This document shows, one piece after another, positions 9,420-41,375 of a stretch of 41,375 nt of DNA. Both the position numbers and the translations under genes were made by a program. This DNA comes from Phycisphaerales bacterium (lineage in GTDB: Bacteria > Planctomycetota > Phycisphaerae > Sedimentisphaerales > Anaerohalosphaeraceae): positions 1-41,375 of the forward strand of contig DSDR01000172.1 of the NCBI GenBank assembly GCA_011048645.1, in the 5' to 3' direction. A model generated the notes under the pieces. That model saw only the letters and a list, made by a program, of their open reading frames with translations. It was not told the origin of the DNA and searched no databases. Within the stretch, counting starts at the first letter, position 1. Each line of letters starts with the position of its first letter.

Positions 9420-9423
9420 AAAT

Positions 9424-9726: not shown

Positions 9727-9747
9727 TGTCGTATCCTTTCCATAACG

Positions 9748-11478: not shown

Positions 11479-11504
11479 CGCCTCAGTTTTATTTCATATC
11501 TTTC

Positions 11505-11519: not shown

Positions 11520-11546
11520 TGTATATGTTTGAAAAAAACTTGCTGT

Positions 11547-14710: not shown

Positions 14711-14725
14711 CGCATCCTTTCTTTG

Positions 14726-19000: not shown

Positions 19001-20788
19001 GGCCGTCGTTTCCGAGATAAATTCGAGCGGGGAAGTTTGCTTAAAGGCCTTCAAAAGGGCGCTGGTCTCTTCGGCCACCAGCAAAGGAGGCTGCTGCCCG
19101 TCGCTTAACGGGGCCGACAACAGGGTCGGGCCGTATAAAAAGGCCGTGCGATTCGGCATATCCGGCAGAGTTGATGTATGCAGCTTCATCGGGCATGTTA
19201 ATTCAATTGTGTCGCCGTCCTCAAAAGTGCGTCTTAGCGTCAGCCAGCCGTCCTGATCAACGGCGGCGTTTGTCGCCCGACCGTTCAGCGTTACTTCGAT
19301 GCCGTCAGCCCAATACGGCTTTCGTATTTTCAACACAAGACCTTGCGGCTGTATGCACTCAAAAGACAGCGCGACCTGTTCGTGGCTGGGCAATTGGCTT
19401 TGTTGGGTGAGCGTGATCCCTTTGTCTTTCCAGTTCAGAACCGACGAGATAAACAGATTGACATACAGCGTGTCGCCGGCATGGGCGTAAATGGTATCGG
19501 CGTATTTGGCGTGATTTTCCATACCGGTGCCGACACAGCACCAGAATGAGCGGGTCGGATGGCTGAATCCTTTTCGGGAGGGCATATCCAAAAAGCCTTT
19601 ATACACCAGCCGACCGCCCTGTTCGGGATGTTGATGCGCCAGAATGTGGTTGAGCAGCGCCCGCTCATAATAATCCATATAAGCCGCTTTGGGCTGCCAG
19701 GCAAACAAATGCCGCGTCAGCTTGAGCATATTGTAGGTGTTGCATGTTTCGGTTGTGTGGTGCATCCGCTCGGCCAGATGATCGGGTCTGCCGAAATACT
19801 CTTCGGCGCTGTTGCCGCCGTTGGCATAGGTGTAATGGTTGATTACCGTTGCCCAGAAGAAATCGGAAATCGTCTGATAGCGTTCCTTGCCGGTCAGTTC
19901 GTACAGCCGCGCCGTGCCGATGACCTTGGGAACCTGGGTGTTGGCGTGCAGACCGGTCAGACTGTTTTGTCGTTCGCTGAGCGGATCGAGCACTGATTTG
20001 TGATAGAACTTCTCTGCCAGCGCCAGATAACGTTCCCTGCCGGTCAAGGCGTACAGATCAGCGAACGTTTCGTTGATGCCGCCGTGTTCGCAGGCCAGCA
20101 TCTGCTGCCACTGCGATTCATTGAGACCCGCCAGCAATTCATCAATCCAGTCGGCGTGGCGAATCCACACCGCAAGCGCCTTTTGATTGCCGGTATAAAA
20201 ATAAATATCGCGCAATCCGGCCATCAGCTTGTGCTGGGTGTACCACGGCACCCAGATACCGTTCAAATCAAAACCGCGGGAGCGAATTTCTCCGCGCGAC
20301 ACTTCTTCAAAGGCTCGTTTGCCGTTGGGGAAAGCGGACATATAACCGCTGCCGTGTGCGTCCTGGATAAGGGCCAGCTCATCGACGATATACTCGAGTT
20401 TTTGCTTGAACTCATCGCGCCCGGTATGGCCGTACATCATCGCACAAGCCGACATATAATGCCCCAGACTGTGGCCGGCAATTGTTTCACGTTCCCAGCC
20501 GCCATAGACTTCGCCTTTCGGCTCCAATCCGGCCTCCTTTCGAAACCACGCCAGAAAACGATCCGGTTCCAGCGACAACAGCCACTCGGCGTTGAGGTCC
20601 ATGGCCGTTTTGAAGGGGCCTTCCAGCAGCCGAACATCGCCCAATCGGAACGGTCGGGCCTGTATCGCCGCCTGAGGCTCAACCCTGGCAGGAAAGTCCA
20701 TCGTCAGTGAGTCCGCTAAAAGAGGCGAAAACTGAAAACAAAACAAGACAAACATAACACCAATACAGAGCTTTGAGGCACGCATCAT
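16052..20788 (-). CDS. Secreted 1578-aa protein with two tandem GH127/DUF1680-like (beta-L-arabinofuranosidase-type) modules and a C-terminal discoidin-like beta-sandwich
   Basis: The signal peptide is MMRASKLCIGVMFVLFCFQFSPLLADS. Module 1 has GHSLGHYMSA.., HHTTETCNTYNM and SFWCCVGTGMENH. Module 2 has DDTDPYKVLEGAAY.., SHELYNMGHLYEAAV, SAYAETCAAIGN and AWFGCACCPGNIARF. The ETC and CC motifs match the Zn/Cys catalytic site of HypBA1 as I recall it. The C-terminus is WVQFEF..VEVYWLDD... Confidence 0.8.
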   Translation of the reverse strand: MMRASKLCIGVMFVLFCFQFSPLLADSLTMDFPARVEPQAAIQARPFRLGDVRLLEGPFKTAMDLNAEWLLSLEPDRFLAWFRKEAGLEPKGEVYGGWERETIAGHSLGHYMSACAMMYGHTGRDEFKQKLEYIVDELALIQDAHGSGYMSAFPNGKRAFEEVSRGEIRSRGFDLNGIWVPWYTQHKLMAGLRDIYFYTGNQKALAVWIRHADWIDELLAGLNESQWQQMLACEHGGINETFADLYALTGRERYLALAEKFYHKSVLDPLSERQNSLTGLHANTQVPKVIGTARLYELTGKERYQTISDFFWATVINHYTYANGGNSAEEYFGRPDHLAERMHHTTETCNTYNMLKLTRHLFAWQPKAAYMDYYERALLNHILAHQHPEQGGRLVYKGFLDMPSRKGFSHPTRSFWCCVGTGMENHAKYADTIYAHAGDTLYVNLFISSVLNWKDKGITLTQQSQLPSHEQVALSFECIQPQGLVLKIRKPYWADGIEVTLNGRATNAAVDQDGWLTLRRTFEDGDTIELTCPMKLHTSTLPDMPNRTAFLYGPTLLSAPLSDGQQPPLLVAEETSALLKAFKQTSPLEFISETTAYQRGPDGWKTTPLKLMPHYAIADEPYTVYMDVFTPQAWADKQAEFAAEQERIRQLEAMSVDMLRLGQMQPERDHNLTGERTNVGTFSGRMWRDAYNGWFEFDMKVLPDEPVDLIATYWGSERGRRTFDILVDGEKIATQVLDRNKPNEFFDVTHPIPEELTKGKEKVRIRFQAHPNSYAGGVFDVRIIKRNPSGGGKQTLRLERDYPYSPVDFTNVHFDDEFWAPRVEINRTVTIPHAFEKCEETKRFYHFERAAKVLRGEELEDRSPPGLSFDDTDPYKVLEGAAYGLAVEYDPKMDAYLDQVIDLVASAQEPDGYLYTTRTINPENPHEWAGPRRWIYVKRLSHELYNMGHLYEAAVAHYQATGKRTLLDVAIKNAELLCETFGPGKNEDAPGHQIIEMALVRLYRVTGEEKYLNLAKFFLDTRGPNDGQYSQAHKKVVDQDEAVGHAVRATYMYSGMADVAALTGDQAYIQAMDRIWNNMVTKKLYVTGGIGATSSGEAFGPNYVLPNMSAYAETCAAIGNVYWNHRMFLLHGDGKYIDVMERTLYNGLISGVSLDGTLFFYPNPLESRGQHRRQAWFGCACCPGNIARFLASVPGYVYATRNNALYVNLYVGGQGTVQLADNSVKIEQQTRYPWEGQVKLTVAPQTSETFTLALRIPGWAMNQPVPGDLYRYRDTLDKKPTIRVNGRAVSFEPDKGYARMTRQWNAGDTIELNFPMDVRQVVAHENVVENRHRIALERGPIVYCIEAADSPTEQVRNLIVDPKTPIHTEFRSNLLGGVQVLTFRASEVGLDDSDNRIVTSSVDVTAIPYSTWCNRGPNEMVVWLPTRKEDAFVRPRPTLASESRVTASRGTGRPRSVVSGVEPKSSHDKDNEFYHWWPRKGTTEWVQFEFAEPTALSAVEVYWLDDTGHGECKVPQSWRLLYKDGDEWKPVDDSNGYATELNMFNRTAFTQVTTTAVRLEIRMQRGWSAGVLQVRFDE

Positions 20789-20982: not shown

Positions 20983-21225
20983 ATGAGTTTATACAATAAA
21001 CAACTGAGTGCCTCCCTTGAGGACTATCTGGAGGCGATATTTGTTCTTTCGCAGACAGGCAGGATTGCCCGCAGCAAATTCCGAATCACCTGCCATCCTC
21101 TTAAAGAGGTTCAAGAAAATCAAAAGAAATGGACAGTTTTTTTGAAAAAATTGAAAAAAATTGTTGCAAAGTTAGGCGAAACTAATTATCTTAGACCAGA
21201 CTTAAACTATGAGTTTATACAATAA
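20983..21225 (+). pseudogene. Duplication by-product: the first 31 codons of the DtxR-family gene, reading out of frame through the duplicated promoter (80-aa ORF)
   Basis: MSLYNKQLSASLEDYLEAIFVLSQTGRIARSK is identical to the start of the intact gene except for I/V. The ORF then diverges into FRITCHPLKEV.. and stops at 21223-21225, 17 nt inside the intact gene. Confidence 0.8.
21164..21192 (+). promoter_or_regulatory. Proximal copy of the dtxR promoter (TTGCAA-17-TATCTT). Its operator copy AGTTAGGCGAAACTAATT (21170-21187) carries a C-to-A change in the right arm.
   Basis: Read directly. The change breaks the CCTAA arm symmetry that is present in the distal copy. Confidence 0.5.
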
Positions 21226-21694
21226 ACAACTGAGTGCCTCACTTGAGGACTATCTGGAGGCGATATTTGTTCTTTCGCAGACAGGCAGGGTTGCCCGCAG
21301 CAAAGACATTGCCGAGCATTTGCAGGTAGCGCCGTCATCAGTCACAGGCGCGCTGAAAATGCTGGCCGAGCGGCAATTGATTCACTATAAACCCTATGGA
21401 TATGTTACCTTGACCGACAGAGGCCGGCAAATGGCCGGGCGTATCGTTCGACGGCATGAGGCGCTGGAATCATTTTTTTGCGATATCCTTGGGGTGGATC
21501 CCGATGTTGCGCAGCGCTCGGCCTGTTTGGCCGAACACGCCATCAGTTCGGAAATTGCATCGCGTCTGATGCTGTATTTGGAGTTTCTGTCATCGGAAAA
21601 ACAGTCCGGCAGAGATGTACCGCGGGCGTTTCAGGGGTATTGCCGGCAAACGGAGATCCGGAGTCAGGGCACACAAAAACCCAGTCATACGTGA
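21209..21694 (+). CDS. DtxR/MntR-family metal-dependent transcriptional repressor (HTH plus dimerisation domain, no SH3 domain)
   Basis: 161 aa. Motifs: EDYLEAIF, the HTH ARSKDIAEHLQVAPSSVTGALKML, YGYVTLTDRGR, RRHEALESFF and CLAEHAIS (metal-ligand positions). Fe versus Mn specificity cannot be read from sequence. Confidence 0.9.
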   Translation: MSLYNKQLSASLEDYLEAIFVLSQTGRVARSKDIAEHLQVAPSSVTGALKMLAERQLIHYKPYGYVTLTDRGRQMAGRIVRRHEALESFFCDILGVDPDVAQRSACLAEHAISSEIASRLMLYLEFLSSEKQSGRDVPRAFQGYCRQTEIRSQGTQKPSHT

Positions 21695-21766
21695 TGGTCG
21701 ATGTTCAGTGATGATGTTTATTGCGTCAAGGATTCAATAATGCAGACCAACAAGGAGACACAATCG

Positions 21767-21991
21767 ATGCCGCTTATACAAGTACCGGCCGGAAAGACCG
21801 TCGAGGTCGTTTTCATCGACGCCGGGCACGGGTTGAAAAATCGCCTTGCTTCCATGGGCGTCCTGTCTCATTCAACGTTTAAGGTATTGCGCAACGAAGG
21901 GGCCGGTCGGCTCATCGTCGGTATCAAAAACAGCAAAGTTGTCATCGGACGCGGCGCATCCGGTAAAATTTTTGTCCGGGAGTGTGAATAA
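21767..21991 (+). CDS. feoA: FeoA-domain protein
   Basis: MPLIQVPAGKTVEVVFIDAGHGLKNRLASMGVLSHSTFKVLRNEGAGRLIVGIKNSKVVIGRGASGKIFV is a typical FeoA SH3-like domain. I set the start at ATG 21767, which has AAGGAG 9 nt upstream. The track ORF starts at 21701. Confidence 0.85.
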   Translation: MPLIQVPAGKTVEVVFIDAGHGLKNRLASMGVLSHSTFKVLRNEGAGRLIVGIKNSKVVIGRGASGKIFVRECE

Positions 21992-22006
21992 TTTTTTTAG
22001 ATAATA

Positions 22007-22024
22007 AGTTAGGCAAGCCTAACT
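22007..22024. promoter_or_regulatory. DtxR-box-like perfect palindrome AGTTAGGC-AA-GCCTAACT between feoA and feoB
   Basis: Read directly: 8-bp perfect arms with a 2-nt centre. It shares AAGTTAGGC with both dtxR promoter copies, and TTAGGcaAGCCTAA matches the core of the DtxR consensus. Confidence 0.6.
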
Positions 22025-22043
22025 CGCACAGGGATTGTTTTCA

Positions 22044-24128
22044 ATGGAACAAAAAAAAGAAATACGTGTTGCTCTGGCCGGCAACCCCAACAGCGGAAAA
22101 ACCACTGTATTTAATCTGTTGACCGGTGCGCGGCGACACGTCGGCAATTATCCCGGCGTAACGGTCGAAAAAGTCGAAGGACGACGCGATTATAAAGGAT
22201 TTTTACTGCGTTTTGTCGATTTGCCCGGCACTTACAGTCTGGCCGCCTATTCCACCGAAGAGCTGGTTGCCCGGCATTTTATATTGGATGAAAAACCTGA
22301 TGTGGTCGTTGATGTGCTGGATGCTTCCAATCCGGAGCGGCATTTATACCTGGCCACGCAATTGATGGAAATGCGCACACCGCTGGTGCTGGCCTTTAAT
22401 ATGTCCGATGTCGCTCAAAGCCAGGGACTGGAATTTGATTTGAAACACCTGGAGGGCCTGCTTGGCTCTCGTATTGTGCCGATGGTGGCCAGCAAGGGTA
22501 AAGGAATGAATGACCTGCTGGACGCGGTCATCGAAACCGCGGCCGATAAGACGCCCATTACGCCGCCAATGCACTATGGCAAGGATATTGAGGCCGAACT
22601 GTCTCGGATTGAACACCTCTTGATAGAATCCGATTGCGAGGTCTCGGCCCGGTACGGAAGCCGATGGGTTGCTTTGAAACTGCTCGAAGGCGATGCGGAA
22701 CTATGCAGTCGCGTTAAACATTCGGATATTTTGAAAGTAGTTGAGGCCGCTCAGGTTCGGCTTAAAACCATTCTCGGCGATAGTGCGGACATCTTGATTG
22801 CCGACCGGCGCTACGGGTTTATCAGCGGCGCCTGCCAGGAAGCGATCAAGCACACCGTCCTGGCCCGCCACGATATCAGCGACAAGGTGGATTTGGTGCT
22901 GACGCATCGCTGGCTGGGACTGCCGATATTCGGAGTGCTGATGTATCTGGTGTTTTATCTGACATTTACGCTGGGCGAATATCCGATGGGGTGGCTGGAA
23001 ACGTTTTTCGATTGGCTGGGTGCGGCAACCGTCGCCGTTTGGCCGGGCGAAAACCTGCTCTGGCTGCAATCGCTTCTGGTTGACGGCGTGATCGCCGGCG
23101 TCGGCGGAGTCGTGGTCTTTCTGCCGAATATTCTCTTTCTGTTTTTGGGTATCGCTGTTCTTGAGGATACTGGCTATATGGCTCGCGCGGCCTTTATTAT
23201 GGATCGCATTATGCACAAGATCGGTCTGCACGGAAAAAGCTTCATCCCAATGCTGATTGGCTTTGGCTGTTCGATTCCGGCGATTATGGCCACACGCATT
23301 CTGGAAAACCGCCGCAACCGGCTGGCTACTATGCTGGTCATTCCGCTGATGAGCTGCGGAGCGCGCATCCCTATTTATGCGCTGCTGATTCCGGCGTTCT
23401 TCCCCCCCCACTGGCGCGGGCCGGTGATGTGGCTGATTTACATTATCGGAATCGTCGCGGCTATCCTCTGCATCAATCTGCTGCGGCGATCTCTACTCAA
23501 AGGCGAATCCGTTCCGTTTGTGATGGAATTGCCGCCCTACCGAATGCCGACATGGAAAGGCCTGTCTATCCATATGTGGGATCGCGGCTGGATGTATTTG
23601 AGAAAAGCCGGAACGATTATTCTCAGTTTATCCATCGTCTTGTGGTTTTTGATGAGTTTTCCCACGCCGCCGGAAGGACGGTTTGATCATCTGACGCCGG
23701 AAGAACAATACGCTGCCGGCCTGAAATATTCAATTGCCGGTCGCATCGGCAAAGCGATGGAGCCGGTGATTCGACCGATGGGTTTTGACTGGAAGATCGG
23801 TACCGCCCTGATCGGTGCGACCATGGCCAAAGAAGTGTTTGTGACGCAATTGAGTATCGTCTATTCGCTCGGCGACGAAGAGGAAGACGAAGAGACGCTT
23901 TCCCTGCTTCGTCAGCGGCTGCGTGCGGACTATTCGTCGCTTCAGGGGTTTTGCATTATGTTATTCTGTTTGCTCAGCACACCGTGTATTGCAACGGTGG
24001 CGATTACGCGCAAGGAATCCGGAAAATGGAGATGGGCCTTATTCCAGTTTTTCGGTCTGACGGCGATGGCCTATGTTGTGACCACAGCGGTCTTTCAAAT
24101 CGGCAGTTTGGTACAGTCGTTAATCTGA
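22044..24128 (+). CDS. feoB: Ferrous iron transporter FeoB (G-domain plus permease)
   Basis: G1 is GNPNSGKTT and G3 is DLPGTYSL, with gate motifs in the polytopic C-terminal part. I set the start at ATG 22044 (MEQKKEIRVALAG). Confidence 0.95.
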   Translation: MEQKKEIRVALAGNPNSGKTTVFNLLTGARRHVGNYPGVTVEKVEGRRDYKGFLLRFVDLPGTYSLAAYSTEELVARHFILDEKPDVVVDVLDASNPERHLYLATQLMEMRTPLVLAFNMSDVAQSQGLEFDLKHLEGLLGSRIVPMVASKGKGMNDLLDAVIETAADKTPITPPMHYGKDIEAELSRIEHLLIESDCEVSARYGSRWVALKLLEGDAELCSRVKHSDILKVVEAAQVRLKTILGDSADILIADRRYGFISGACQEAIKHTVLARHDISDKVDLVLTHRWLGLPIFGVLMYLVFYLTFTLGEYPMGWLETFFDWLGAATVAVWPGENLLWLQSLLVDGVIAGVGGVVVFLPNILFLFLGIAVLEDTGYMARAAFIMDRIMHKIGLHGKSFIPMLIGFGCSIPAIMATRILENRRNRLATMLVIPLMSCGARIPIYALLIPAFFPPHWRGPVMWLIYIIGIVAAILCINLLRRSLLKGESVPFVMELPPYRMPTWKGLSIHMWDRGWMYLRKAGTIILSLSIVLWFLMSFPTPPEGRFDHLTPEEQYAAGLKYSIAGRIGKAMEPVIRPMGFDWKIGTALIGATMAKEVFVTQLSIVYSLGDEEEDEETLSLLRQRLRADYSSLQGFCIMLFCLLSTPCIATVAITRKESGKWRWALFQFFGLTAMAYVVTTAVFQIGSLVQSLI

Positions 24129-24144
24129 TTTTCTGTTTTGAACG

Positions 24145-24327
24145 ATGAAGCCTATTAACCCGGCCCAAAAAAATAAGCTCAAAACGGCTTTGCCGAGTGT
24201 GTCCTCGCCGCCGATTTACCGCATCGAACAGCTTTTTGACGGCGCACGACAAGTCCGTTTGCTCCATAAAGGGCAGGAATATCGGCTGAGTATCACCAAA
24301 GCGGATAAATTGATCTTAACCAAATGA
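24145..24327 (+). CDS. HemP/HmuP-like small protein (60 aa)
   Basis: The C-terminal signature IEQLFDGARQVRLLHKGQEYRLSITKADKLILTK matches the HemP family pattern (..LF.G..E..I.H.G..Y.LR.T..GKLILTK). It starts 17 nt after the feoB stop. Confidence 0.75.
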   Translation: MKPINPAQKNKLKTALPSVSSPPIYRIEQLFDGARQVRLLHKGQEYRLSITKADKLILTK

Positions 24328-24416
24328 CAGGATAAAACGAATACATTAAAAATGCCAGCCAATTGCTCTGCAATAGCCAGCCATATCAAAAGTAAACTTT
24401 TTGGAAAGGAAAGTGT

Positions 24417-25733
24417 ATGGTTGGCAGAAAAAGTTTGTCTTATTGGCCATCTGTATTGGATTTATTTCTGGTTGCGAGGCTAGTCGTCTCGGACCAATCG
24501 TATGGGAATGAAATAGACACAGCAGTCATTCAGCATCGACTGGAACAATTGCAGGGCGAGATAAATCAGCTCAAGGCGATGCTGTCGCAGCAACAGGTCG
24601 AACAGGAACGTACTCGACAGGAGATTGAAACCTATCGTCAGAAGGTTCAGGCACAAGAAACGCTGCGTGCCGCCGAACAGGATCGGCTGCATATTGGCGG
24701 TTACGGTGAAATCAAAGGGAAATTCCGGCAAGGCAGCGATGCGGATTTTGGGGACATTCATCGTCTTGTCCTGGAAATCGGGTATGATTTTTCAGACTGG
24801 GTCAGATTTTTTTCCGAGTGGGAAGTCGAACACGCCCTTGTTTCCGATACGGCTGACGGTTCAACCGGCGGCTATTTGATGATCGAACAGGCATATTTCG
24901 ATTTTCTGTTGTCCGATATGTTTAACGTTCGGGCAGGTCGTATTCTGACGCCGATGGGGATCATTAACAAACGGCATGAGCCGGACACGTTCTTCGGTGT
25001 GGATCGTCCTTCTGTCGAGCGCTATATCATCCCCACGACATGGCCGTCGGACGGCGTTGGTTTGTTCGGCAATTTGGGTTCGCATCTGGCCTATGAGATG
25101 TATGTAGTCGGCGGCCTGGACGGTTCAAAATTCAATGCCGTCAACGGCATTCGCTCCGGCCGACAGCGGGAACGCCCCGGCCTCAATGATCCCGCCGTCA
25201 CGGGGCGACTGGACTATTTTCCGCAAATGAGTCCGGGACAGGATTTGCGGCTGGGGGTATCCGGCTATTACGGCGGATTGAACAACGGCAATCGGGGTCG
25301 AAATCCGGGCATCAGCGGCAAGATTCGAATACTGTCGGCGGATTTTGAGTATTCGATTGATAAATGGGACTTCCGCGGCGTTATCGTACACACCGATATC
25401 AGCAACGCCCGTCAGATTGGCAACGGCGCCGCCAGTGAAATGTTCGGATGGTATCTGGAAGGCGGATATCACTTTTGGCCGGACTCCTTCAAGGTCGGTA
25501 AGCTTGCCGATTCCGATGCGGTGGCTTTTGTGCGTTACGATCATTTTGACACACAGCACAAAATGCCTTCCGGAATTGCGGCGGATCCGGCCGGAGACCG
25601 AAATACATGGACGTTTGGAATGAATTTTGACTTGACCTCCAATGTTGTTTTCAAGACCGATTACCAGATACAGAAAGACCGCGCCGGGAATAAAGAGAAT
25701 TGGCTCAACTTTGGTCTGGGATTTTCATTTTAG
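24417..25733 (+). CDS. Outer-membrane porin with an N-terminal coiled coil (phosphate-selective porin O/P-like). The 5' end is possibly frameshifted.
   Basis: The coiled coil is LEQLQGEINQLKAMLSQQQVEQE... It is followed by alternating beta-strand sequence ending GLGFSF, with the terminal Phe typical of OM barrels. The annotated frame has no signal peptide, but a lipoprotein-type signal lies in another frame (see findings). Confidence 0.7.
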   Translation: MVGRKSLSYWPSVLDLFLVARLVVSDQSYGNEIDTAVIQHRLEQLQGEINQLKAMLSQQQVEQERTRQEIETYRQKVQAQETLRAAEQDRLHIGGYGEIKGKFRQGSDADFGDIHRLVLEIGYDFSDWVRFFSEWEVEHALVSDTADGSTGGYLMIEQAYFDFLLSDMFNVRAGRILTPMGIINKRHEPDTFFGVDRPSVERYIIPTTWPSDGVGLFGNLGSHLAYEMYVVGGLDGSKFNAVNGIRSGRQRERPGLNDPAVTGRLDYFPQMSPGQDLRLGVSGYYGGLNNGNRGRNPGISGKIRILSADFEYSIDKWDFRGVIVHTDISNARQIGNGAASEMFGWYLEGGYHFWPDSFKVGKLADSDAVAFVRYDHFDTQHKMPSGIAADPAGDRNTWTFGMNFDLTSNVVFKTDYQIQKDRAGNKENWLNFGLGFSF

Positions 25734-25741
25734 GAGATAAG

Positions 25742-26218
25742 ATGATGCCGCATCAAACGATGGTATTCAGTACGGCGGTACCGTTGAGTTTAATGTGTAA
25801 CAGTTGCAGCGGGCCGGAACAAACAGCCGCCAGTATCATTGCGGAAAATGAGCAATTTATGATGTATAAAGCAATGGGAAATGCACAGGATCGGTTTGCT
25901 GTCAGAACAACAGCCGCGACGCGCTCCGGTACATTTACACTGGAGGTTGTTATCAATCCGGATATGGTGATTCAGGAAACCAGAATTCTATCCTATCCTT
26001 TAACACGAGGCCGCGGCATTTTACAGCCGGGTTTTTTGAGCCGGTTCCACGGCAAAACCATCAATGATCCCATTCAGGTGGGAAACGATATACATGCAGT
26101 AACCGGAGATACAATGTCATCAATAGCAATGTCTGATGCCGTACGCCAAAGTCTCGCATTTGCCGTCCAATACAGAGAGCGGATGCAGAGACTGAACGAC
26201 AACTCACCGCCGCTATAA
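25742..26218 (+). CDS. Exported FMN-binding-domain (FMN_bind, RnfG/NqrC/PplA-like) protein
   Basis: GTFTLEVVINPDMVIQETRILSYPLTRGRGILQPGFLSRFHGKTINDPIQVGNDIHAVTGDTMSSIAMSDAV fits the FMN_bind pattern, including the flavinylation-site region. It has a hydrophobic, Cys-containing N-terminus. I set the start at ATG 25742; the AGGAG SD overlaps the porin stop. Confidence 0.75.
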   Translation: MMPHQTMVFSTAVPLSLMCNSCSGPEQTAASIIAENEQFMMYKAMGNAQDRFAVRTTAATRSGTFTLEVVINPDMVIQETRILSYPLTRGRGILQPGFLSRFHGKTINDPIQVGNDIHAVTGDTMSSIAMSDAVRQSLAFAVQYRERMQRLNDNSPPL

Positions 26219-26230
26219 AATTTGACATAA

Positions 26231-26247
26231 TAGTAGAAATTTAGTAG
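26231..26247 (+). promoter_or_regulatory. Direct TAGTAG hexamers 11 bp apart, inside a candidate promoter (TTGACA 26222-26227, 17 nt, TAGGTT) upstream of the OprB-type porin
   Basis: Read directly. TTTAGTAGG is identical to the left arm of the cus palindrome at 12863-12871. Confidence 0.4.
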
Positions 26248-26312
26248 GTTTTACATAAAGAAATATAAAATGCTCCTGAACTGACAGAATCAATTTTTGG
26301 AAAGGACAGCAG

Positions 26313-27572
26313 ATGAAGCGCATCACCTTGGGATATGGTATTGGATTGGTTCTCATTGTTTCGGTCTTTGCCCATCAGAATCCCTCAGAAAAGGAATCTC
26401 TAACCGATGGTTTTTGGGGACTGAATGAAGCGTTGGAATCAAGCGGTATTGAGTTTGGGCTGAGTCTGACGAACATCTATCAGCTCAATGCCCGCGGCGG
26501 AATGAGTACCAGCCGTCGTCAGGGGCGCTGGTCCGGCAGTTACGATTTTGAGATGACCGCTGATCTGGAGCGGCTGTTGGGTGCCGAGGGCGCTGAAATC
26601 TATATGCTGGCCGAGGGGACCTGGTCGCGCAAAGACATTGATGAAACCTCCGTCGGCAGTGCGTTCGGCGTCAACGCGGATTTTGCCCCGCGCGAGGCGT
26701 TTAACATCATTGAGTTCTGGTATCAGCAATCGTTCTTTGACGATACACTGAGAATCCGCATCGGCAAGCTCGATATGACCGGCGGATTTGAGCACAGGGG
26801 CCGTCCTGTTTCGTTTGACTGCAGCGCCTACGCCAACGATGAAAACACGCAATTTCTCAATAATGCGCTGGTCAACAACCCGACCATTCCGTTTCCGGAC
26901 TATGGGCTGGGCGTGATTGTCTTCTGGAATCCGGTGGATGATTGGTATCTGTCGGTTGGAGCCGCCGACGCGCAGGCCGACAAACGCGAAACCGGCTTTA
27001 ACACCGCCTTCCACAGCGAAGATTACTTCGTCTATATGGCCGAGACGGGCATCACGCCTCAATTCAACTCGGCCAACGGCCCCCTGCAGGGCGCTTATCG
27101 GATCGGAATGTGGTACAGCCCCGAACCTCGCGCCAACGAACAGGCGGCTGATGAGGGCAGGGCCTGGCGCGATGATACCGGTTTTTATCTGAGCTTTGAC
27201 CAGCTTTTGGCCAAAGAAAACAATGACCCGGACGACAGTCAGGGATTGGGCGTTTTCTTCCGTTACGGCCAAGCCAGCGCCAAGACCAATGACATCACTG
27301 ATTTTTACAGCGTCGGCTTCCAGTACCAAGGCCTCTTTGACGGCCGCGACGACGATGTGCTCGGCGTCGGTTACGCCCGCGGCCGGTTCAGCCATCGCGC
27401 CTCGGCGGTCTTTCGCGATCACCACGAAAGTGTTCTGGAAGCCTATTACAATACCAGCATCACGCCGTGGCTGAATCTCAGTCCGTCGGTACAATACGTT
27501 GCCAACCCCGGCGGCTCCGGCGAAGCCAAGGACGCCGTCGTTGTCGGTCTTCGGGCCATGATGATCTTTTGA
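26313..27572 (+). CDS. OprB-family (carbohydrate-selective / iron-uptake type) outer-membrane porin
   Basis: It has the signal peptide MKRITLGYGIGLVLIVSVFA. The motif EFWYQQSFFDDTLRIRIGKLDMTGGFE is characteristic of OprB family members. The protein ends VVGLRAMMIF. Confidence 0.8.
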   Translation: MKRITLGYGIGLVLIVSVFAHQNPSEKESLTDGFWGLNEALESSGIEFGLSLTNIYQLNARGGMSTSRRQGRWSGSYDFEMTADLERLLGAEGAEIYMLAEGTWSRKDIDETSVGSAFGVNADFAPREAFNIIEFWYQQSFFDDTLRIRIGKLDMTGGFEHRGRPVSFDCSAYANDENTQFLNNALVNNPTIPFPDYGLGVIVFWNPVDDWYLSVGAADAQADKRETGFNTAFHSEDYFVYMAETGITPQFNSANGPLQGAYRIGMWYSPEPRANEQAADEGRAWRDDTGFYLSFDQLLAKENNDPDDSQGLGVFFRYGQASAKTNDITDFYSVGFQYQGLFDGRDDDVLGVGYARGRFSHRASAVFRDHHESVLEAYYNTSITPWLNLSPSVQYVANPGGSGEAKDAVVVGLRAMMIF

Positions 27573-34350: not shown

Positions 34351-35136
34351 ATGAATACAAAAACGACAGAGACAATCGGTCTTTCAATTGTCATCCCGAC
34401 CTTTCAGGAGGCCAGGAAAGTAGGCGGCGATATCGCGGCTGCATCGGAGTTTCTGACCCGGTTTCCCGACGGCGGCGAAATCCTGATTGCCGATGACGGC
34501 AGTCGAGATCAGACCGCCGATGTCGCTGAGCAATGCGCCGCTCGGTCCCCTGTCTCGGTGCGTGTGCTTCGATTGGAACGCAACCGCGGCAAAGGCTGCG
34601 CGGTACGCACGGGGATTCTCGAAAGCCGCGGCCGGTATGTGATGTTTGCCGACAGCGGCTGCTGCGTGCCGTATCAGGAAGCGATGACGGGCATCGAACT
34701 GATTCAAAGCGGCCGATGCCAAATCGCCCACGGCTCCCGTAAAATGAGCGTCAGCCACATCCATCGTCCGCAATCCTGGTATCGTCGGCTCTGCTCGCGG
34801 CTGTTTCATTGGCTGCTGATTCACGACCTCAAACGCTTGGCCAATTTGACCGACACGCAGTGCGGCTTTAAGGTCTATGACGGCCAGATTGCCCGATGTC
34901 TGTATGCAGTCAGCACCATCGACGGATTTATGTTTGATGTGGAAATTATCCTGCTGGCGATGAAATACGGCTACAGGATATGCGAATTTCCCGTGGACTG
35001 GTCATGGGATCCGGACAGCCGACTCAAACCCTCTCACGAAGCGATTAAGGTACTGCGGGATTTAATTTGGCTCAAGCACCAATACGGCGATGTGCTCAGT
35101 ACACAGCGAAATCAGTCAAAATCAGCCGCACAGTAA
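34351..35136 (+). CDS. GT2 glycosyltransferase, dolichyl/polyprenyl-phosphate beta-glucosyltransferase-like
   Basis: Motifs: LSIVIPTFQEA, LIADDGSRDQT, NRGKGCAVR, FADSG and TQCGFKVY. I set the start at ATG 34351; the track ORF starts at 34186. Confidence 0.85.
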   Translation: MNTKTTETIGLSIVIPTFQEARKVGGDIAAASEFLTRFPDGGEILIADDGSRDQTADVAEQCAARSPVSVRVLRLERNRGKGCAVRTGILESRGRYVMFADSGCCVPYQEAMTGIELIQSGRCQIAHGSRKMSVSHIHRPQSWYRRLCSRLFHWLLIHDLKRLANLTDTQCGFKVYDGQIARCLYAVSTIDGFMFDVEIILLAMKYGYRICEFPVDWSWDPDSRLKPSHEAIKVLRDLIWLKHQYGDVLSTQRNQSKSAAQ

Positions 35137-35902: not shown

Positions 35903-38431
35903 CTACGGCCACAACCCCAATTTCAACGGCGATTGTGTCGGATCAGCCGGTATCAGCATAACGCCGTCCTGCGGATGTTCGTCGGCCAATTGCGCAACCG
36001 CTTCGGTCGGCAACACCATAAAAGCGGTGGTCAACGCATCGGCTTTGGCCGCTGAAAAATCCGTCAACAGCCAAACCGCCCGTCTTTTTGATGCGGGCCG
36101 GCCGGATACGGGATCAATGATATGGCTTCCGCGCTCCAGCCCCGAACAACTCAGCACGCGACCGGCCAACGCCAGGCGAACCAGCGTTTCTGCTGGATCG
36201 TGCGGATTGGACAACCGAATCGGCCAGCCGTCCCTTTCTTGCGGCGGCCCCAACGCGCGCACCGAGCTTGCCCCGCCGTGTATCAGGGCGTGTTCAATGG
36301 TCCACTGGTTCAACATTTCGGCCATCCGATCAATCGCGTAGCCTTTGGCCACGCCGCCCAAATCAAGCTCCATATTCGGCCGCCCTACGATAACGGTTAA
36401 CTCCTCCGCATTGAGTTCAAACGGCCTGCCCTCTCGCGTCGGCAACAGTCGGGCGATCTGATCAGGAGTCGGTTCGCCCTGCCGCCACAGCTGAACCAAC
36501 GGTCCGACCGACATATCAAATGCGCCGTCTGTCCGTGCGTAAACTTCTTCAGCAATTTTTAAACAAGCCATCGTATCCGGCGAGACCACCACCGATTCGC
36601 CGGGCCGGGCCTGATTGATGCGACTGATATCGCTGTTGTCGATGAAGCGACTCAACTCCTGCTCCAGCCGATCGACCTCGGTGAACGCCGCACGCGCAGC
36701 GCGGCCGGCGTAAGAGCCGTCCTCGTGCTGAACCCAGATTTCAAAGACCGTATTCATAGCCTGATGGCTGAACTTGGCCGTTTTCGGAATCTCGTTACGG
36801 TCGGGCTGAATATGCACAATAGGTCCCTCATCCACTTGATCATGAGAAGATTCAACGGCCGCCGGCGTCTGAGCAAATACTTTTTCCCACAGAGATCGCG
36901 TCACCACCCCCCGCCATTCGACGCCGGGACGCAGCTCGATATACTCATCAAACAACGGCACATAAAGTTCACGCTGACCCGGCGGCGGGGTCTCATACAG
37001 TTTTCGCAGCACGTCCTGCTTGACATCGGCATGACCAATCACCAACGGTGCATTGGGCAAACGCAAATCGACGGTGTCGGTATAGGCTGCCGCTTCAAAA
37101 TCCCGCAGATACCACGGCAGCGGCCAGTAATCATGCCCCGGCGCAATAACCTGAATAAACATTTTCTTGCCGTCCGGATGGACGTCCGCAATGCGGCGGA
37201 CGGTCTGCTCGATCTTGAACACATCCGGGCCGGTGTGCGCATACACCCACGGATTGCTCGGATGAGCGGCGTATCGGGTGTTCAAAAATACCGACTGAAA
37301 CAGCGGACTGACAACCCCGAAACCCGCCAGTACAATGCACAGCATGATTTTCTGCCATCGCATCACATCCCAGCGAAGCATCCGGTCGGTTGCCAACCCC
37401 GCGAGCAAAACCATCCCGTACATAAAATTTAACGCACACCACGGCGTCTTATACGGGATGACCGAATAAATAATCGTTAAAATCAACGTAAACAAAGCCA
37501 AAAACACACCGAACGGGCGGCGATGCGACAGCCCTGCGCGACGTTGAAATGCAAAAAAGAATCCGAACAGGGCGCCGGCTGCGATGATGTCTTCATTCCA
37601 CGTAATCGGCTGGACAAACTCAATCCACACCATCAAATCCAGATACCAATACCACGGATGGGCGTGGATGCTGTGCTGGCCGGCGCGATTGAGCCAGTAG
37701 GTATAGGTCAGCACCGAATCCAGAATGCCGTCGGGATGTTTGCCGAAGGATGAAAAAAAGACCATACTGGTCGCTGCCGCGGCCAACAGGCCCAGTAGTC
37801 CGTTCCGGTTGTACAGCGAAAAACGCACCGGCCAGCCCGTCAAGACCAGCGTCAGCAGCGCCGCCAGCATCACCGCGGCAAACGTCAGCGCGCACGTTTC
37901 TTTCGTCGCGTGCATCAGACCGGCACACACACCCGCAAAGAGTATCCATCGGCGCCGATGAGACCGCATATACCGCCACATTCCGCCCAGAAAGCCTGCG
38001 GTAAAGCAAACCAGCAGCATTTCCTGAATATAGTAGCGGCTGTAATAGACAAAAGCGGGCGAAAAAGCCAGCAGCACGGTGGAAAACACCGCCGCGCGCA
38101 GACCAATACCGTCAAAAAACAAAAGCGGAGTCAATAAAAGCAACGTTCCGAAAATCGCCGGCACAAAGCGAAGCGTTTTTTCGTCAATATCGATATACGA
38201 CGCCTGTCCGCGGAGCCAGGCCACCGGAAGCGCCAGATAATTCAGCGTCGGACCGTGGTACTCGTCGGGGTCATAGGCGTAAAAGCCCTCATCCAGCAAA
38301 GCGCCGAATTTTTCGGCATGAACCGCTTCATCGGTATGCATCGGCCTCATGTCCAGGGCATAAATCCTGAACCAGAGGCCGAATGCAAGCGTCATACCGA
38401 ACAGCAGACATCCTGTCCGTGATAACCTCAT
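35903..38431 (-). CDS. Fusion protein: N-terminal TIGR03663/PMT-like GT-C polytopic membrane domain (~aa 1-520) plus C-terminal ApbE-family FAD:protein FMN transferase domain (~aa 545-842)
   Basis: The N-terminal part has MHTDEAVH (DE) and EYHGPTLNY (HGP), the invariant motifs I recall for TIGR03663, followed by about 12 or more TM helices. The C-terminal part has AMNTVFEIWV, SDISRIN, TDGAFDMSVGPL, LDLGGVAKGYAIDRM and IHGGASSV, which is the ApbE signature. It is one uninterrupted 842-codon ORF. Confidence 0.8.
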   Translation of the reverse strand: MRLSRTGCLLFGMTLAFGLWFRIYALDMRPMHTDEAVHAEKFGALLDEGFYAYDPDEYHGPTLNYLALPVAWLRGQASYIDIDEKTLRFVPAIFGTLLLLTPLLFFDGIGLRAAVFSTVLLAFSPAFVYYSRYYIQEMLLVCFTAGFLGGMWRYMRSHRRRWILFAGVCAGLMHATKETCALTFAAVMLAALLTLVLTGWPVRFSLYNRNGLLGLLAAAATSMVFFSSFGKHPDGILDSVLTYTYWLNRAGQHSIHAHPWYWYLDLMVWIEFVQPITWNEDIIAAGALFGFFFAFQRRAGLSHRRPFGVFLALFTLILTIIYSVIPYKTPWCALNFMYGMVLLAGLATDRMLRWDVMRWQKIMLCIVLAGFGVVSPLFQSVFLNTRYAAHPSNPWVYAHTGPDVFKIEQTVRRIADVHPDGKKMFIQVIAPGHDYWPLPWYLRDFEAAAYTDTVDLRLPNAPLVIGHADVKQDVLRKLYETPPPGQRELYVPLFDEYIELRPGVEWRGVVTRSLWEKVFAQTPAAVESSHDQVDEGPIVHIQPDRNEIPKTAKFSHQAMNTVFEIWVQHEDGSYAGRAARAAFTEVDRLEQELSRFIDNSDISRINQARPGESVVVSPDTMACLKIAEEVYARTDGAFDMSVGPLVQLWRQGEPTPDQIARLLPTREGRPFELNAEELTVIVGRPNMELDLGGVAKGYAIDRMAEMLNQWTIEHALIHGGASSVRALGPPQERDGWPIRLSNPHDPAETLVRLALAGRVLSCSGLERGSHIIDPVSGRPASKRRAVWLLTDFSAAKADALTTAFMVLPTEAVAQLADEHPQDGVMLIPADPTQSPLKLGLWP

Positions 38432-38437
38432 AGGCGG

Positions 38438-39214
38438 CTATTTGCCATACACTTCCACTTCAATATAGTGGTTGTAGTCATTCTGGTTGTTGCCCTCGCT
38501 CCACAGGCGAACATAGCGACCGCGAATCCCTTTGCAATCGATCAGCTTGCCTTCCGAGGTCTCAACATAATTTTGGTCGGTTCCCACGCCCAGGCCCAGC
38601 GAATTGTTGTGATCATTATTGAAGACCACCGTCGATTCAATAAATTCCGGATCGTTGGAAATCTCGACGACCACATTGAAATACACCGCCGGCGTGCGGT
38701 GATAGTGCCAGACGACAATGGCATAAATGTCGTGTTCCTTTTCCAGGTCAATCATCACCCACTGGGCAAACGGCCCCAGTTCCACCACACTGCCTTCGGT
38801 GGCTTCTTTATCGCCATCGACAATCATCTCCAGGTCACCCATTATCGGAAACGGTTCCGAGCTGGTTACCGGCTTGTTGAGCGCCACATTAGCGACCCCT
38901 TCGGGCGCCAGAAACGGCGGGCGCGGTCTGCCGAGTGGTTTTTCAAGATTCTGCACGCCTTCCAGATTCTGCGGCGTCCCGACAAACATCGGCTTGGGCA
39001 ATGTCAGCGGTATCGGAACAAGATTCTCATCCTCGTTTGCCGGTTCAGTCTCCGAAGTTGCGGGAACCTGTTCCGTTGACGTCGCCGGTTCACTCTCGAC
39101 CGAACGGGTTGTCTGCTCGTCATCCGGTTGGGCCGGGGGTGTTGGACTTTTTTTACATCCAAAAGCGATCAGACCGATTGTTAATACTACACTCAACCAC
39201 ACCAATTTTTTCAT
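38438..39214 (-). CDS. Lipoprotein with an acidic/Thr-Pro linker and a discoidin (F5/8 type C) domain
   Basis: The lipobox is MKKLVWLSVVLTIGLIAFGC. The C-terminal domain is QWVMIDLEKEHDIYAIVVWHY..GRYVRLWS..YIEVEVYGK. The stop lies 6 nt before the fusion gene's ATG. I set the start at ATG 39214, which has a GGGAGA SD. Confidence 0.75.
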   Translation of the reverse strand: MKKLVWLSVVLTIGLIAFGCKKSPTPPAQPDDEQTTRSVESEPATSTEQVPATSETEPANEDENLVPIPLTLPKPMFVGTPQNLEGVQNLEKPLGRPRPPFLAPEGVANVALNKPVTSSEPFPIMGDLEMIVDGDKEATEGSVVELGPFAQWVMIDLEKEHDIYAIVVWHYHRTPAVYFNVVVEISNDPEFIESTVVFNNDHNNSLGLGVGTDQNYVETSEGKLIDCKGIRGRYVRLWSEGNNQNDYNHYIEVEVYGK

Positions 39215-39357
39215 TTTGACTGTCTCCCGGTTATATACCATTTCTGTCTATTTCTTGTACTTATTTCATTGTAACTGAAAAATCCCGAATGTCAAATTCC
39301 GGTTTTTTTCGCGTCTTCGCTCAACCGATTTGTCTGTGGCATCTTTTCGACAAAAAA

Positions 39358-39456: not shown

Positions 39457-40830
39457 TTACTTCTTTTCCAGGGATACCGTTTCCGGCTCAAGTCCCATTT
39501 CCGCGGCCACCAGATAGATTGAGAATCCAAGAATAAACGAGACGAGCGTTTCAAGACCGTAACTGAATCCGATGCCCGGAAGGACATTAAAGATACCCAC
39601 AACAAACCCCACAGCCCAAGCGATATAGCCGGCCCAGTTAATCCCTTTCCGCGGCCCGTTCCAGCCTCCGCTGCGGATATAGTCGGCGGTCATGGCGCCA
39701 ATAATCGGACCGAAAGAAGCCCCGATCAAGCCGAAGAACCCCGCCAGATTGTTGGCCAACCCCGTCGCGGCCAGAATCACGCCCACGACACCGGCCGCCA
39801 TCGTCATACCGGTACGCGGCAGTTTGGGGAACATCGTCGAGAATGAATTGGCCGCCAAAAACGCACAAAAGCCCGTCGGACAAATGCAGGCGATCAAGAA
39901 CACCCAGAACATAATTTTCGATAAGCCGCCGACCTCGCCGAGCGAACTGATAAACAGCGGAATTCCAGCCATTTTATCCGTCCCGACCCCGTGTTGAACC
40001 GCCAGTTGTGGATTATTGCCGATGGCTCCGGCAATCGTAAACAGGGCAAACGTACCGGCGACCAGCGCCGCAATCGTAATGCCCCAAAATCCGCCCAACA
40101 CCACGTCTTTTTGAGAACGACTGTTCATCGTAAAATCAGCGCCGGCTGCACCGGCCGTCGCAAAAAAACCGGCCGCGGCCTGTATCGCCGCAAACGCACC
40201 CAACCCCATGACGGGAATGATGGCCGCCGAGCGAGCGATGTCGGCGACCGATTCGAATTTGCCGATGCCGCCCATATTGGCAAACCCCGCAATCACAATG
40301 GCGGCCAAAGGAAAGACGGGAATCCAGCTCGACAGCCAGCCCAGCCAGCTAATGCCGACCGCACCCACAAACGCAAAAATCAATCCCCAAACCGCACAAA
40401 CCAGCCAGAAAAAAGCCGAGTTAGGCCCGGCGTCCCGACCAATGGCCTGCATAAAAAACGAGGCCGCCGAAAACGTAAACACCGCATGCCAACCGATCTG
40501 AAGCGCCCCCATCAATAATCCCGGCATCACAATTCCGCCCTGCGTGCCGAACGTTGACGAGCCGACCACATACAGCGGCATTCCCGTTTTGAAACCGAGC
40601 ATGCCGGGGACATAGTACAGCAGAAAACAGAACAGCGATCCGATCAGCAACCCCACAAATCCGGCCCATACACTGCCGAACTGAAGCGCGCCGGCCATGC
40701 CGGCCATAAACGGCACAGACAGGAAAATGCCCGCATAGGACGGCGCCGTATTTTTGTACCACGGCGCCCGATTTTCCATCGGGTTGGGTTTTGCTGCCGC
40801 CAGATAATTCGGTAAGCTTTCGTTTGCCAT
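39457..40830 (-). CDS. Polytopic permease, probably NCS1 / purine-cytosine permease-like
   Basis: 457 aa with about 12 TM helices. The Gly-rich helices and the N-terminus (PWYKNTAPSYAGIF..) resemble CodB/CytX-type transporters. Family assignment is from memory only. Confidence 0.45.
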   Translation of the reverse strand: MANESLPNYLAAAKPNPMENRAPWYKNTAPSYAGIFLSVPFMAGMAGALQFGSVWAGFVGLLIGSLFCFLLYYVPGMLGFKTGMPLYVVGSSTFGTQGGIVMPGLLMGALQIGWHAVFTFSAASFFMQAIGRDAGPNSAFFWLVCAVWGLIFAFVGAVGISWLGWLSSWIPVFPLAAIVIAGFANMGGIGKFESVADIARSAAIIPVMGLGAFAAIQAAAGFFATAGAAGADFTMNSRSQKDVVLGGFWGITIAALVAGTFALFTIAGAIGNNPQLAVQHGVGTDKMAGIPLFISSLGEVGGLSKIMFWVFLIACICPTGFCAFLAANSFSTMFPKLPRTGMTMAAGVVGVILAATGLANNLAGFFGLIGASFGPIIGAMTADYIRSGGWNGPRKGINWAGYIAWAVGFVVGIFNVLPGIGFSYGLETLVSFILGFSIYLVAAEMGLEPETVSLEKK

Positions 40831-40856: not shown

Positions 40857-41375
40857 TTAGATTTGCGTATCCTTCCTGATCTCTTTGCGAATCAGAACAT
40901 ACAACGTTAACACCGCCGCGGCCGCGAATGCCAGCGCACTCCAGCGATGGGCCTCAAAAAGCCATTCCTGCCCTTTCGTGCCGAACAGCGTGGTCATACT
41001 GATGACCATCGTCAGCGTCAACGGCAGCGACAACGCCGTTAAGAGCCAGAAGCCCGCTTTCGGCGCGGCCGAACAGTCGGTCAGCCAGCAGGCGTTTTTG
41101 TTTTTTCGGTTTTTCCACAAGTCGGCCAGGTGCTCGGCGTCGTGCTTAACCAGTCGATATCGCTCGGCGCCGGTTACGACCACCACCGCCGCACAGGCAA
41201 TAAAAATCGGTGCAAATGTCGCGTGAAGCATCAGCCAGTATCCTTCCAGCCGTCCGCCCAGCAGCGGCGGCAGAAAACCGGTCAGCAGCAGCACGGCAAA
41301 ACTGAGCAAGCCAAATAAAAACGCCAGCTTCCGCAGCCGCCCGCCCCAATTAAGCGATTGCTCCAGAAACAGCAA
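40857..41375 (-). CDS. Hypothetical membrane protein (C-terminal part; the ORF is open at the right edge)
   Basis: It has four hydrophobic helices with conserved-looking His residues (MLHATFAP, FEAHRWSA). The Met shown in the track is an edge artefact. Confidence 0.4.
   Translation of the reverse strand: MLFLEQSLNWGGRLRKLAFLFGLLSFAVLLLTGFLPPLLGGRLEGYWLMLHATFAPIFIACAAVVVVTGAERYRLVKHDAEHLADLWKNRKNKNACWLTDCSAAPKAGFWLLTALSLPLTLTMVISMTTLFGTKGQEWLFEAHRWSALAFAAAAVLTLYVLIRKEIRKDTQI

Follow-up and report, generated by a model that had tools for sequence, protein, structure and literature searches.

The analysed stretch of DNA (hereafter the window) comprises 41,375 nucleotides of contig DSDR01000172.1 of a Phycisphaerales bacterium (assembly GCA_011048645.1). 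On its minus strand, at 35903..38431, it carries a gene for 842 amino acids plus stop, in which a TIGR03663/Agl23-type membrane domain of the glycosyltransferase C (GT-C) class is joined, via a linker, to an ApbE (FAD:protein FMN transferase) domain. The corresponding gene pair is conserved across at least six phyla, with the fusion as its minority form. This pair, together with a CBM32-like lectin and a DPM1/GtrB-like GT2 glycosyltransferase, forms a four-gene module that is usually attached to a glycoside-3-dehydrogenase-like, keto-sugar-processing and cytochrome operon. In our judgement the chances are even that this represents an envelope maturation module, combining lipid-linked sugar handling and flavin attachment, which serves a periplasmic sugar-oxidizing electron chain; each single step of the mechanism proposed below is less certain than this overall picture. 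Both domains stem from known families, whereas for their partnership, be it as fusion or as module, we found no description in the literature.

One reading frame for two enzymes

The region is occupied by a single uninterrupted open reading frame (ORF) of 842 codons, with an ATG start and no internal stops. We preferred this start over the 830-residue database call because a full-length first transmembrane (TM) helix is present only in the longer form. The GT-C domain spans residues 1-520 and the ApbE domain residues 553-842, with a disordered linker in between. Pfam recovers ApbE (PF02424) at residues 559-821 (E 4.6e-57, 194 bits against a cutoff of 25.6), and TIGR03663, the current NCBIfam name of which is 'flippase activity-associated protein Agl23', is matched by residues 11-449 with 184.1 bits (cutoff 126.25), covering model positions 4-434 of 435. 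The Pfam families PMT (residues 76-206) and PMT_2 (84-194) are also detected, the former with 34.1 bits against a cutoff of 22.7, yet only profile positions 73-211 of 245 are covered. Characteristic motifs are found at D34-E35, H59-G60-P61, 634-639 (TDGAFD), 692-698 (GGVAKGY) and 718-723 (HGGASS). Thus, the fusion, domain boundaries and motifs quoted in a preliminary description of the window, made from the letters alone, are right as judged from the ORF, Pfam, NCBIfam and the motif positions. Database labels of the fused proteins mention TIGR03663/Agl23 only.

That description also raised the possibility that a frameshift or mis-assembly had joined two genes. Many relatives display a 4-nt overlap between the two genes, and a single-base error could then mimic a fusion. 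However, the same gene is present in three other assemblies (ENA ERZ1742330, JGI 3300022547 and Logan SRR7787622) with five substitutions and no indels over 2529 nt, and the architecture is shared by at least 120 protein clusters at 90% identity, diverging down to 38% identity and in some cases located on contigs of 3-6 Mb. The linker length is moreover conserved and the ApbE leader motif retained. As the four near-identical assemblies differ by substitutions only and at least 120 diverged clusters are fused, the fusion ORF is confirmed as real, and the probability of an artefact is negligible.

A conserved gene pair with probably recurrent fusion

To place the fusion in context, one genome per species was scanned, using our own ORF map followed by a search with seed hidden Markov models (HMMs). 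This yielded 45 loci where the genes are split and adjacent (TIGR03663 of about 510-560 and ApbE of about 290-330 residues) versus 10 fused loci. The pair was found in KSB1, Planctomycetota (Phycisphaerae and Pirellulales), Calditrichota, Acidobacteriota (including Aminicenantes), Verrucomicrobiota and Bacteroidota/Ignavibacteria (Marinoscillum, a complete genome, and Melioribacteraceae). Of the 150 representatives (at 50% identity) closest to the membrane domain, only about 12 are fusions. The usual gene order is TIGR03663 followed by apbE, with 13 pairs overlapping by 4 nt; Aminicenantes and some others instead exhibit the permuted order apbE, lectin, GT-C.

Comparison of the junctions reveals that the fused linker (residues 521-552; 36776..36871, minus strand) is composed of the hydrophilic tail of the upstream protein and an ApbE leader of about 20 residues that ends in ..IPxM(K/R)RF(S/T)HxAM. 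The typical split junction reads AAATGA, and a single indel is therefore sufficient to fuse the genes. A low-resolution neighbor-joining tree, covering 213 membrane domains, shows fused forms interspersed with unfused ones and at least 14 changes of state, and the fusion has probably arisen several times. As an internal control served the junction between the lectin and GT-C genes, which overlap equally often: it is fused in 0/53 cases, as compared to 7/39 for the GT-C-to-ApbE junction.

The module and its redox operon

The fusion gene starts 6 nt past the stop of a discoidin-like lipoprotein gene (38438-39241) and is convergent with genes for a short-chain dehydrogenase/reductase (SDR) and a GT2 protein, both as previously described. 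The lipoprotein (38438..39214, minus strand) consists of a disordered linker, an invariant L-P-x-P-x-F-x-G-T-P peptide (with T80 in the 258-residue form) and a discoidin domain resembling CBM32 and F-type lectins (Pfam F5_F8_type_C_2). Its AlphaFold2 model (pLDDT, the predicted local distance difference test, of 82) forms a beta-sandwich, for which Foldseek returns CBM32 and fucolectins. In 53 loci the lectin gene immediately precedes the GT-C gene, and the G and T of the G-T-P peptide are invariant in 48/48 sequences. Tandem duplications of the discoidin-like gene are seen in L031 and L049, and also in L003, L013, L032 and L036; in L049 as many as six copies lie upstream of the GT-C gene.

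The GT2 protein (34351..35136, plus strand; Pfam Glycos_transf_2) resembles polyprenyl-phosphate glycosyltransferases and is a candidate lipid-linked sugar synthase: NCBIfam matches are obtained to PpgS, AglJ and ArnC, all below the cutoffs, and PDB matches to DPMS (5mlz), GtrB (5ekp) and ArnC (9hwj). The earlier proposal of the GT2 and SDR proteins as partners is hence borne out for the former, which recurs at 17/29 of the ApbE-containing loci analysed below, but not for the SDR, which is lineage-specific and confined to loci L004-L006.

The window ends inside the operon, and we therefore read the upstream genes on the source contig (locus L004) and in five diverged genomes. On the same strand, the order is ThuA-HEAT, two GFO/IDH/MocA oxidoreductases with signals for twin-arginine (Tat) export, AP_endonuc_2+DUF1080, cytochrome c, cytochrome b, an NCS1 or MFS transporter, the lipoprotein and the fusion. 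The conserved context of CBM32-like lipoprotein, periplasmic dehydrogenase and cytochrome genes lies mostly beyond the window end and was thus invisible in the preliminary description. The cytochrome c exhibits seven CXXCH sites, i.e. it is heptaheme, and the cytochrome b (Ni_hydr_CYTB-like in Pfam; 40857..41375, minus strand) is cut by the window end. The Tat signals of the GFO partners are of the RRxF type, and the first of these proteins, GFO1, matches the BT_2158-family glycoside 3-dehydrogenase NF058561 with an E-value of 3.4e-186 and 620 bits, below the equivalog cutoff of 750 bits. In two loci the multiheme cytochrome c and cytochrome b are themselves fused into one ORF (L003 4377-6707, 776 residues; L082 6725-9748, 1,007 residues), a second fusion-prone junction in the operon.

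We then compared the loci with enough flanking sequence, 29 with and 20 without ApbE, using Fisher tests that are blind to phylogeny. The lectin accompanies the GT-C gene regardless of ApbE (22/29 versus 13/20 loci). On the other hand, a multiheme cytochrome is encoded at 15/29 ApbE-containing versus 1/20 ApbE-free loci (p=0.0006), and the presence of ApbE also tracks cytochrome b (p=0.001), GFO (p=0.003), DUF1080 (p=0.003) and, less markedly, GT2 (17/29 versus 5/20, p=0.04).

Topology and conserved residues

An AlphaFold2 model of the fusion was built on 65 fused homologs, with a mean pLDDT of 89.4 and values below 50 at residues 522-537 of the linker. The membrane part (residues 1-384; 37280..38431, minus strand) displays 11 predicted TM helices with the N-terminus inside, two juxtamembrane helices in outer loop 1 and a flexible loop past TM7. 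This 7+4 helix layout is that of PMT/ArnT-like GT-C proteins, though without the MIR domain: no match to MIR was obtained, and outer loop 4 measures only about 54 residues. As the MIR domain is absent, the protein is PMT-like rather than a true PMT (GT39). Foldseek with the N-terminal part returns ArnT (5f15) as best match (E 3.5e-9, target-normalised TM-score 0.64), followed by AglB/STT3, Pmt4 and ALG9. When the GT-C domain was compared as a profile to PDB sequences, the only match was a chance WP(L/I)PWYL stretch in a mitoribosomal protein.

The TIGR03663 family is characterized by an invariant DE dipeptide, an HGP tripeptide and arginine residues. Indeed, D34-E35 and H59-G60-P61 are invariant, and R88, R132, R443 and R501 invariant or nearly so, in the fused proteins as well as in their unfused relatives. 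The acidic pair D34/E35 directly follows TM1, in an outer loop 1 with a net charge of -4.6. The outer loops further harbor the invariant residues H32/D34/E35, H59/G60, R132/E137, K177/E178, H256/Y263 and Y327-K328-T329-P330-W331. The strongest motif of the family, D-Y-W-P-L-P-W-Y-L-R (W436, P437, P439, W440 and R443), is located in the soluble alpha/beta C-domain of the GT-C part (residues 385-520; 36872..37279, minus strand), as is the conserved R501.

Across the 65 homologs, the net charge of the N-terminus is +1.4 and that of inner loops 2, 3, 4 and 5 is +1.7, +2.6, +2.0 and +0.8, respectively, while the large outer loops 1 and 4 are negative. All invariant loop residues reside in outer loops or in the soluble C-domain. 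Since TM11 runs from inside to outside, the C-domain is predicted to face outward like the outer loops. No hydrophobic segment is found between TM11 and the ApbE domain in any of 120 fused proteins (0/120). Considering the positive-inside statistics, the location of the invariant loop residues and the absence of a hydrophobic segment past TM11, the fused ApbE domain is predicted to reside on the outer face. We also sought other C-terminal fusions of TIGR03663 proteins as an independent marker of topology, and found ApbE or nothing.

The ApbE domain (35906..36775, minus strand) was delineated using Pfam, PDB alignments, Foldseek and conservation. For the C-terminal part, Foldseek identifies 4xdt, 6nxi, 3pnd and 5mgy with target-normalised TM-scores of 0.77-0.86. 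Alignment to PDB sequences (6nxi/6nxj, 4xgw and 3pnd) places H770 at His257 of the Vibrio cholerae protein, the residue mutated in 6nxj. K696 of GGVAKGY is invariant, as are D798 and T802 of ADALTT, the Asp/Thr metal site, and F596 occupies the position of Tyr60 in Escherichia coli. The catalytic His, Lys and Asp/Thr are kept in the fused forms and in 41/41 split forms. Judged by these residues, the domain appears to be a catalytically complete, active FMN transferase. Exported ApbE proteins typically start with a signal peptide or lipoprotein anchor, which is absent here; instead the domain trails an 11-TM protein.

Proposed mechanism and comparison to known systems

Whereas the architecture, conservation, synteny, catalytic residues and gene associations are established above, both enzymatic activities, the acceptor and the electron path in the following sequence of events are inferred. 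GT2 would load a hexose onto polyprenyl phosphate at the inner face of the membrane, whereupon the Agl23-like GT-C domain and the lectin lipoprotein may flip and/or use the lipid-linked hexose at the outer face; the invariant G-T-P peptide of the lectin would be the acceptor or docking site. The ApbE part would install covalent FMN on a non-canonical acceptor. Finally, the covalent flavin could provide the link between the periplasmic dehydrogenases, which bind NAD(P)H and transfer two electrons, and the haem chain, which takes up one at a time.

For the membrane domain, the closest functional parallel is offered by Haloarcula hispanica, where Agl23 cooperates with the GT2 protein Agl22 in handling hexose-P-dolichol and acts in vitro as a flippase of lipid-linked glycans (PMC11182771). 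The N-terminal domain studied here passes the TIGR03663 cutoff with the DE, HGP and Arg invariants, and a DPM1-like GT2 is its recurrent neighbor, as Agl22 is to Agl23. Flippase-associated activity on lipid-linked sugars is known only for the Haloarcula protein, and the GT-C domain may exert flippase or transferase activity. Unlike the archaeal pair, however, this bacterial system has ApbE and a CBM32-like lipoprotein as partners and is placed in redox operons, with no agl N-glycosylation context.

The combination of a cytoplasmic-face, polyprenyl-P-sugar-synthase-like GT2 with a GT-C protein that has an acidic first outer loop and a soluble C-domain is likewise reminiscent of ArnC/ArnT, GtrB/GtrC and DPM1/PMT, although sequence similarity to solved GT-C structures is undetectable, the MIR domain is lacking and a flavin transferase is added. 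PpgS/Rv3779 is another two-step system of GT2 and GT-C. To our knowledge, no such system includes a flavin transferase component.

The ApbE domain shares its fold, the catalytic His, the AKGY lysine and the Asp/Thr metal site with established ApbE/Ftp proteins (V. cholerae ApbE 6nxi, E. coli and Treponema pallidum Ftp). It deviates from these in its position C-terminal to an 11-TM GT-C domain without signal peptide or lipobox (the split relatives being free and signal-less), in the Phe at the E. coli Tyr60 position, and in that no [S/T]GA[S/T] substrate is encoded nearby. Fusions and tight clusters of ApbE are known to mark functional partners, as for trypanosomatid fumarate reductase, ApbE-DUF2271 and ApbE-DUF3570 (PMC12052999, PMC8238504). 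In those cases the partner displays a recognisable flavinylation motif, which is missing from the GT-C enzyme to which ApbE is joined here.

As for the attached operon, the BT_2158-family homolog, a second GFO/IDH/MocA protein and the xylose-isomerase-like and DUF1080 parts are common to the Bacteroides BT2156-BT2160 3-keto-glycoside pathway. Here, these are joined to the heptaheme cytochrome c, cytochrome b, ThuA-HEAT and the GT-C/ApbE module, which suggests that electrons exit to the respiratory chain, in contrast to the redox-neutral cycle of BT2156-BT2160.

Compartment of the flavin transferase

Several observations weigh against the envelope maturation module as outlined above. First, about 40 split orthologous ApbEs, bounded by an upstream stop codon, have neither signal peptide, lipobox nor hydrophobic N-terminus, and signal-less ApbEs are cytoplasmic where studied (PMC12052999). 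Second, the canonical [S/T]GA[S/T] site occurs in no module protein, as assessed by strict and loose scans of 5,688 ORFs at 89 loci; the flavinylation target could however be encoded elsewhere in the genome. Third, the associations with redox genes do not take phylogeny into account, the seed HMMs were built from the fused lineage, and several Opitutales loci hold GT-C, ApbE and GT2 only, dehydrogenase and cytochrome genes being absent up to a distance of 10 kb. Finally, the tree on which recurrent fusion is based has no bootstrap support values.

The lack of signals in the split ApbEs clashes with the outward-facing prediction for the fused domain, particularly as unrelated ApbEs caught in the same scan do carry an export signal. 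The preliminary description had both activities operating outside the cytoplasm; this agrees with the prediction for the fused form, but because of the signal-less split ApbEs it is not secure for the module as a whole. Three explanations may be considered. Access to the acceptor may be possible from either side of the membrane, as would hold for a folded protein exported by Tat or for an intermediate attached to a lipid; the split ApbE may leave the cytoplasm by an unconventional route; or, contrary to prediction, the C-domain may lie in the cytoplasm.

A version of the first and last of these would have ApbE act in the FAD-rich cytoplasm on GFO/IDH/MocA dehydrogenases that are later exported in folded form by Tat, with the C-domain of TIGR03663 cytoplasmic against the prediction, or with the fused forms acting on the same target after export. 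We regard this as unlikely. It would account for the split ApbEs and has precedent in cytoplasmic ApbEs (PMC12052999), and the GFO partners both bear Tat signals and correlate with the presence of ApbE. The ApbEs of the module, fused as well as split, are similarly Cys-rich, with about 4 cysteines and often an odd number, as compared to 1.75 in eight signal-bearing ApbEs, which is a weak indicator of compartment and suggestive only. On the other hand, the 11 TM helices with their consistent positive-inside bias place the invariant loop residues and the C-domain on the opposite face, the 7+4 layout is that of PMT/ArnT, an extra TM helix ahead of ApbE is seen in none of the 120 fused proteins, and no flavinylation motif was detected in the GFO proteins.

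The leader of planctomycete split ApbEs contains two cysteines in the pattern C-F-x4-C-x-S-I-P-x-M-[KR]-R-F-[SC]-H (e.g. L017 11623-, L018 11623-, L051 11677-, L060 2022-), both of which are lost in the fused proteins. The [KR]RF of this leader resembles the core of a Tat motif, yet no hydrophobic region follows.

In search of the flavin acceptor

The one find of the strict motif scan was in L085, where a genuine FMN_bind substrate neighbors an unrelated ApbE that carries an export signal; this serves as positive control. The loose [ST]GA[ST] motif appeared sporadically, with nothing recurrent in the module. Contrasting loci with and without ApbE, no Ser/Thr in the lectin or GT-C domain tracks ApbE, and in the GT-C domain no column differed at all. 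Lectin residues that do differ with ApbE state (G150, G156/P157, R185 and H258) look like subfamily divergence and were set aside, and a conserved [ST]-G beside the haem motif of the cytochrome was judged to be structural.

The preliminary description suggested that the fusion might glycosylate and flavinylate one and the same exported substrate, such as an FMN_bind protein 10 kb away. The candidate, an FMN_bind/RnfG-like ORF (25742-26218, plus strand), encodes a probable lipoprotein with a flavinylation-like site, AVTGDT, and both fused domains are predicted on the outer side, as such a scheme demands. However, the family match barely passes (22.9 bits, cutoff 22), and TGDT is non-canonical, with Asp at the usual Ala position. 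The ORF is flanked by a porin gene on one side and an OprB porin gene on the other, with a DtxR-like repressor and FeoB encoded upstream (cluster 21209-27572), and its product may be a helper in extracytoplasmic iron reduction. In the other loci, neither an FMN_bind gene nor a canonical motif is found within 10 kb of the fusion or pair, even though the scan caught the L085 substrate. Thus, neither the proposed partnership nor a double modification of one substrate is supported, and we consider this scenario very improbable. If the genome has no ApbE other than the fusion, the FMN_bind protein could nonetheless be one of the fusion's clients.

It may also be argued that the GT-C domain does no more than stand in for the usual lipid anchor of a housekeeping ApbE whose standard targets are encoded elsewhere (Nqr, Rnf or FMN_bind), the two activities being otherwise unrelated. 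Membrane association and export are normally needed by ApbE (PMC12052999), the catalytic residues are ordinary, the module lacks a canonical substrate, and the FMN_bind-like lipoprotein of the window would need an ApbE. Nevertheless, in most lineages ApbE is a separate, soluble and anchor-free protein that still adjoins the TIGR03663 gene across phyla, also in permuted orders; it co-varies with the cytochrome and dehydrogenase genes, and the conserved lectin and GT2 partners would be left unexplained. An anchoring role alone is therefore, in our view, unlikely, on a par with flavinylation from the cytoplasmic side.

Alternatively, FMN may be transferred to a lipid- or glycan-linked intermediate of GT2/GT-C, or to a sugar on the invariant Thr of the lectin. 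A substrate reachable from either leaflet would reconcile the signal-less split ApbE with an outward fused ApbE, and would account for both the missing protein motif and the tight linkage of ApbE, GT-C and GT2 where redox genes are not nearby; Agl23 has flippase activity (PMC11182771), and a GT-C flippase would solve the delivery of flavin. However, ApbE is not known to act on acceptors other than proteins, the catalytic site here is like that of ordinary protein flavin transferases, and the argument is purely inferential, so that we deem a non-protein acceptor quite improbable. Taken more broadly, the idea that the ApbE of the module attaches FMN to a new kind of acceptor (the lectin Thr, its sugar, or a polyprenyl-linked intermediate flipped by GT-C) fares slightly better, yet it too is rather unlikely. 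If true, the GT2/GT-C pair would be part of a new route for covalent flavin onto envelope proteins, with bearing on how flavin reaches the periplasm.

Novelty and wider significance

Literature searches on Agl23, TIGR03663, ApbE+PMT_2, ThuA/DUF1080/MocA/multiheme and ApbE+Planctomycetes revealed no description of the fusion or of the module. The architecture was initially presented as undescribed, and this stands insofar as no paper describing it was found; it is not rare, though, being the fused minority of a widespread adjacent pair. The main genomic survey of ApbE retained only genes with predicted export signals (PMC8238504), which may explain the omission of a signal-less or membrane-fused subfamily.

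ApbE-dependent flavinylation underlies many extracytoplasmic electron-transfer systems, and the pair and its fusion provide two poorly understood families, this ApbE subfamily and the Agl23-type GT-C proteins, with a concrete and testable partner. A physiological context is thereby suggested for bacterial TIGR03663 proteins, and an orphan class of ApbE with a probably new acceptor is flagged. In Planctomycetota, Verrucomicrobiota, Acidobacteriota and relatives, the pair is the marker of a widespread operon that appears to pass electrons from periplasmic glycoside oxidation to cytochromes, of relevance for polysaccharide turnover in sediments and soils. Settling the conflict between the outward fused and the signal-less split forms would in either case be informative, be it on ApbE export and flavin delivery or on GT-C topology.

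Remaining genes of the window

Within the same operon, an NCS1-like permease is encoded at 39457..40830 (minus strand), as judged from a weak match to NCBIfam TIGR00800. It occupies the same operon position in L003, L004, L011, L017, L018, L020, L025, L047, L051 and L076. In L001 (7952-9142) and L002 (7760-9037) the transporter slot is filled by an MFS protein, a swap that looks like non-orthologous displacement. An Rfam scan for FMN riboswitches near the NCS1/MFS genes, covering the window and four related loci, returned a tRNA as its only match (window 13103-13176, plus strand).

The following genes of the window reside on the minus strand. A 906-residue ORF without Pfam match is found at the window start (371-3091), followed at 5732-12836 by a Cus-like heavy-metal RND efflux set comprising an AcrB-family pump, a membrane-fusion protein with HMBD and YHS metal-binding domains, and an outer-membrane factor. 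At 14117-15862, a gene for an NADPH-dependent FMN reductase/flavodoxin-like protein adjoins that of a DegT-type aminotransferase. Finally, 16052-20788 encodes a protein of 1,578 residues with two GH127 beta-L-arabinofuranosidase modules, DUF6805, a GH88-like stretch and a C-terminal F5/8 type C domain.

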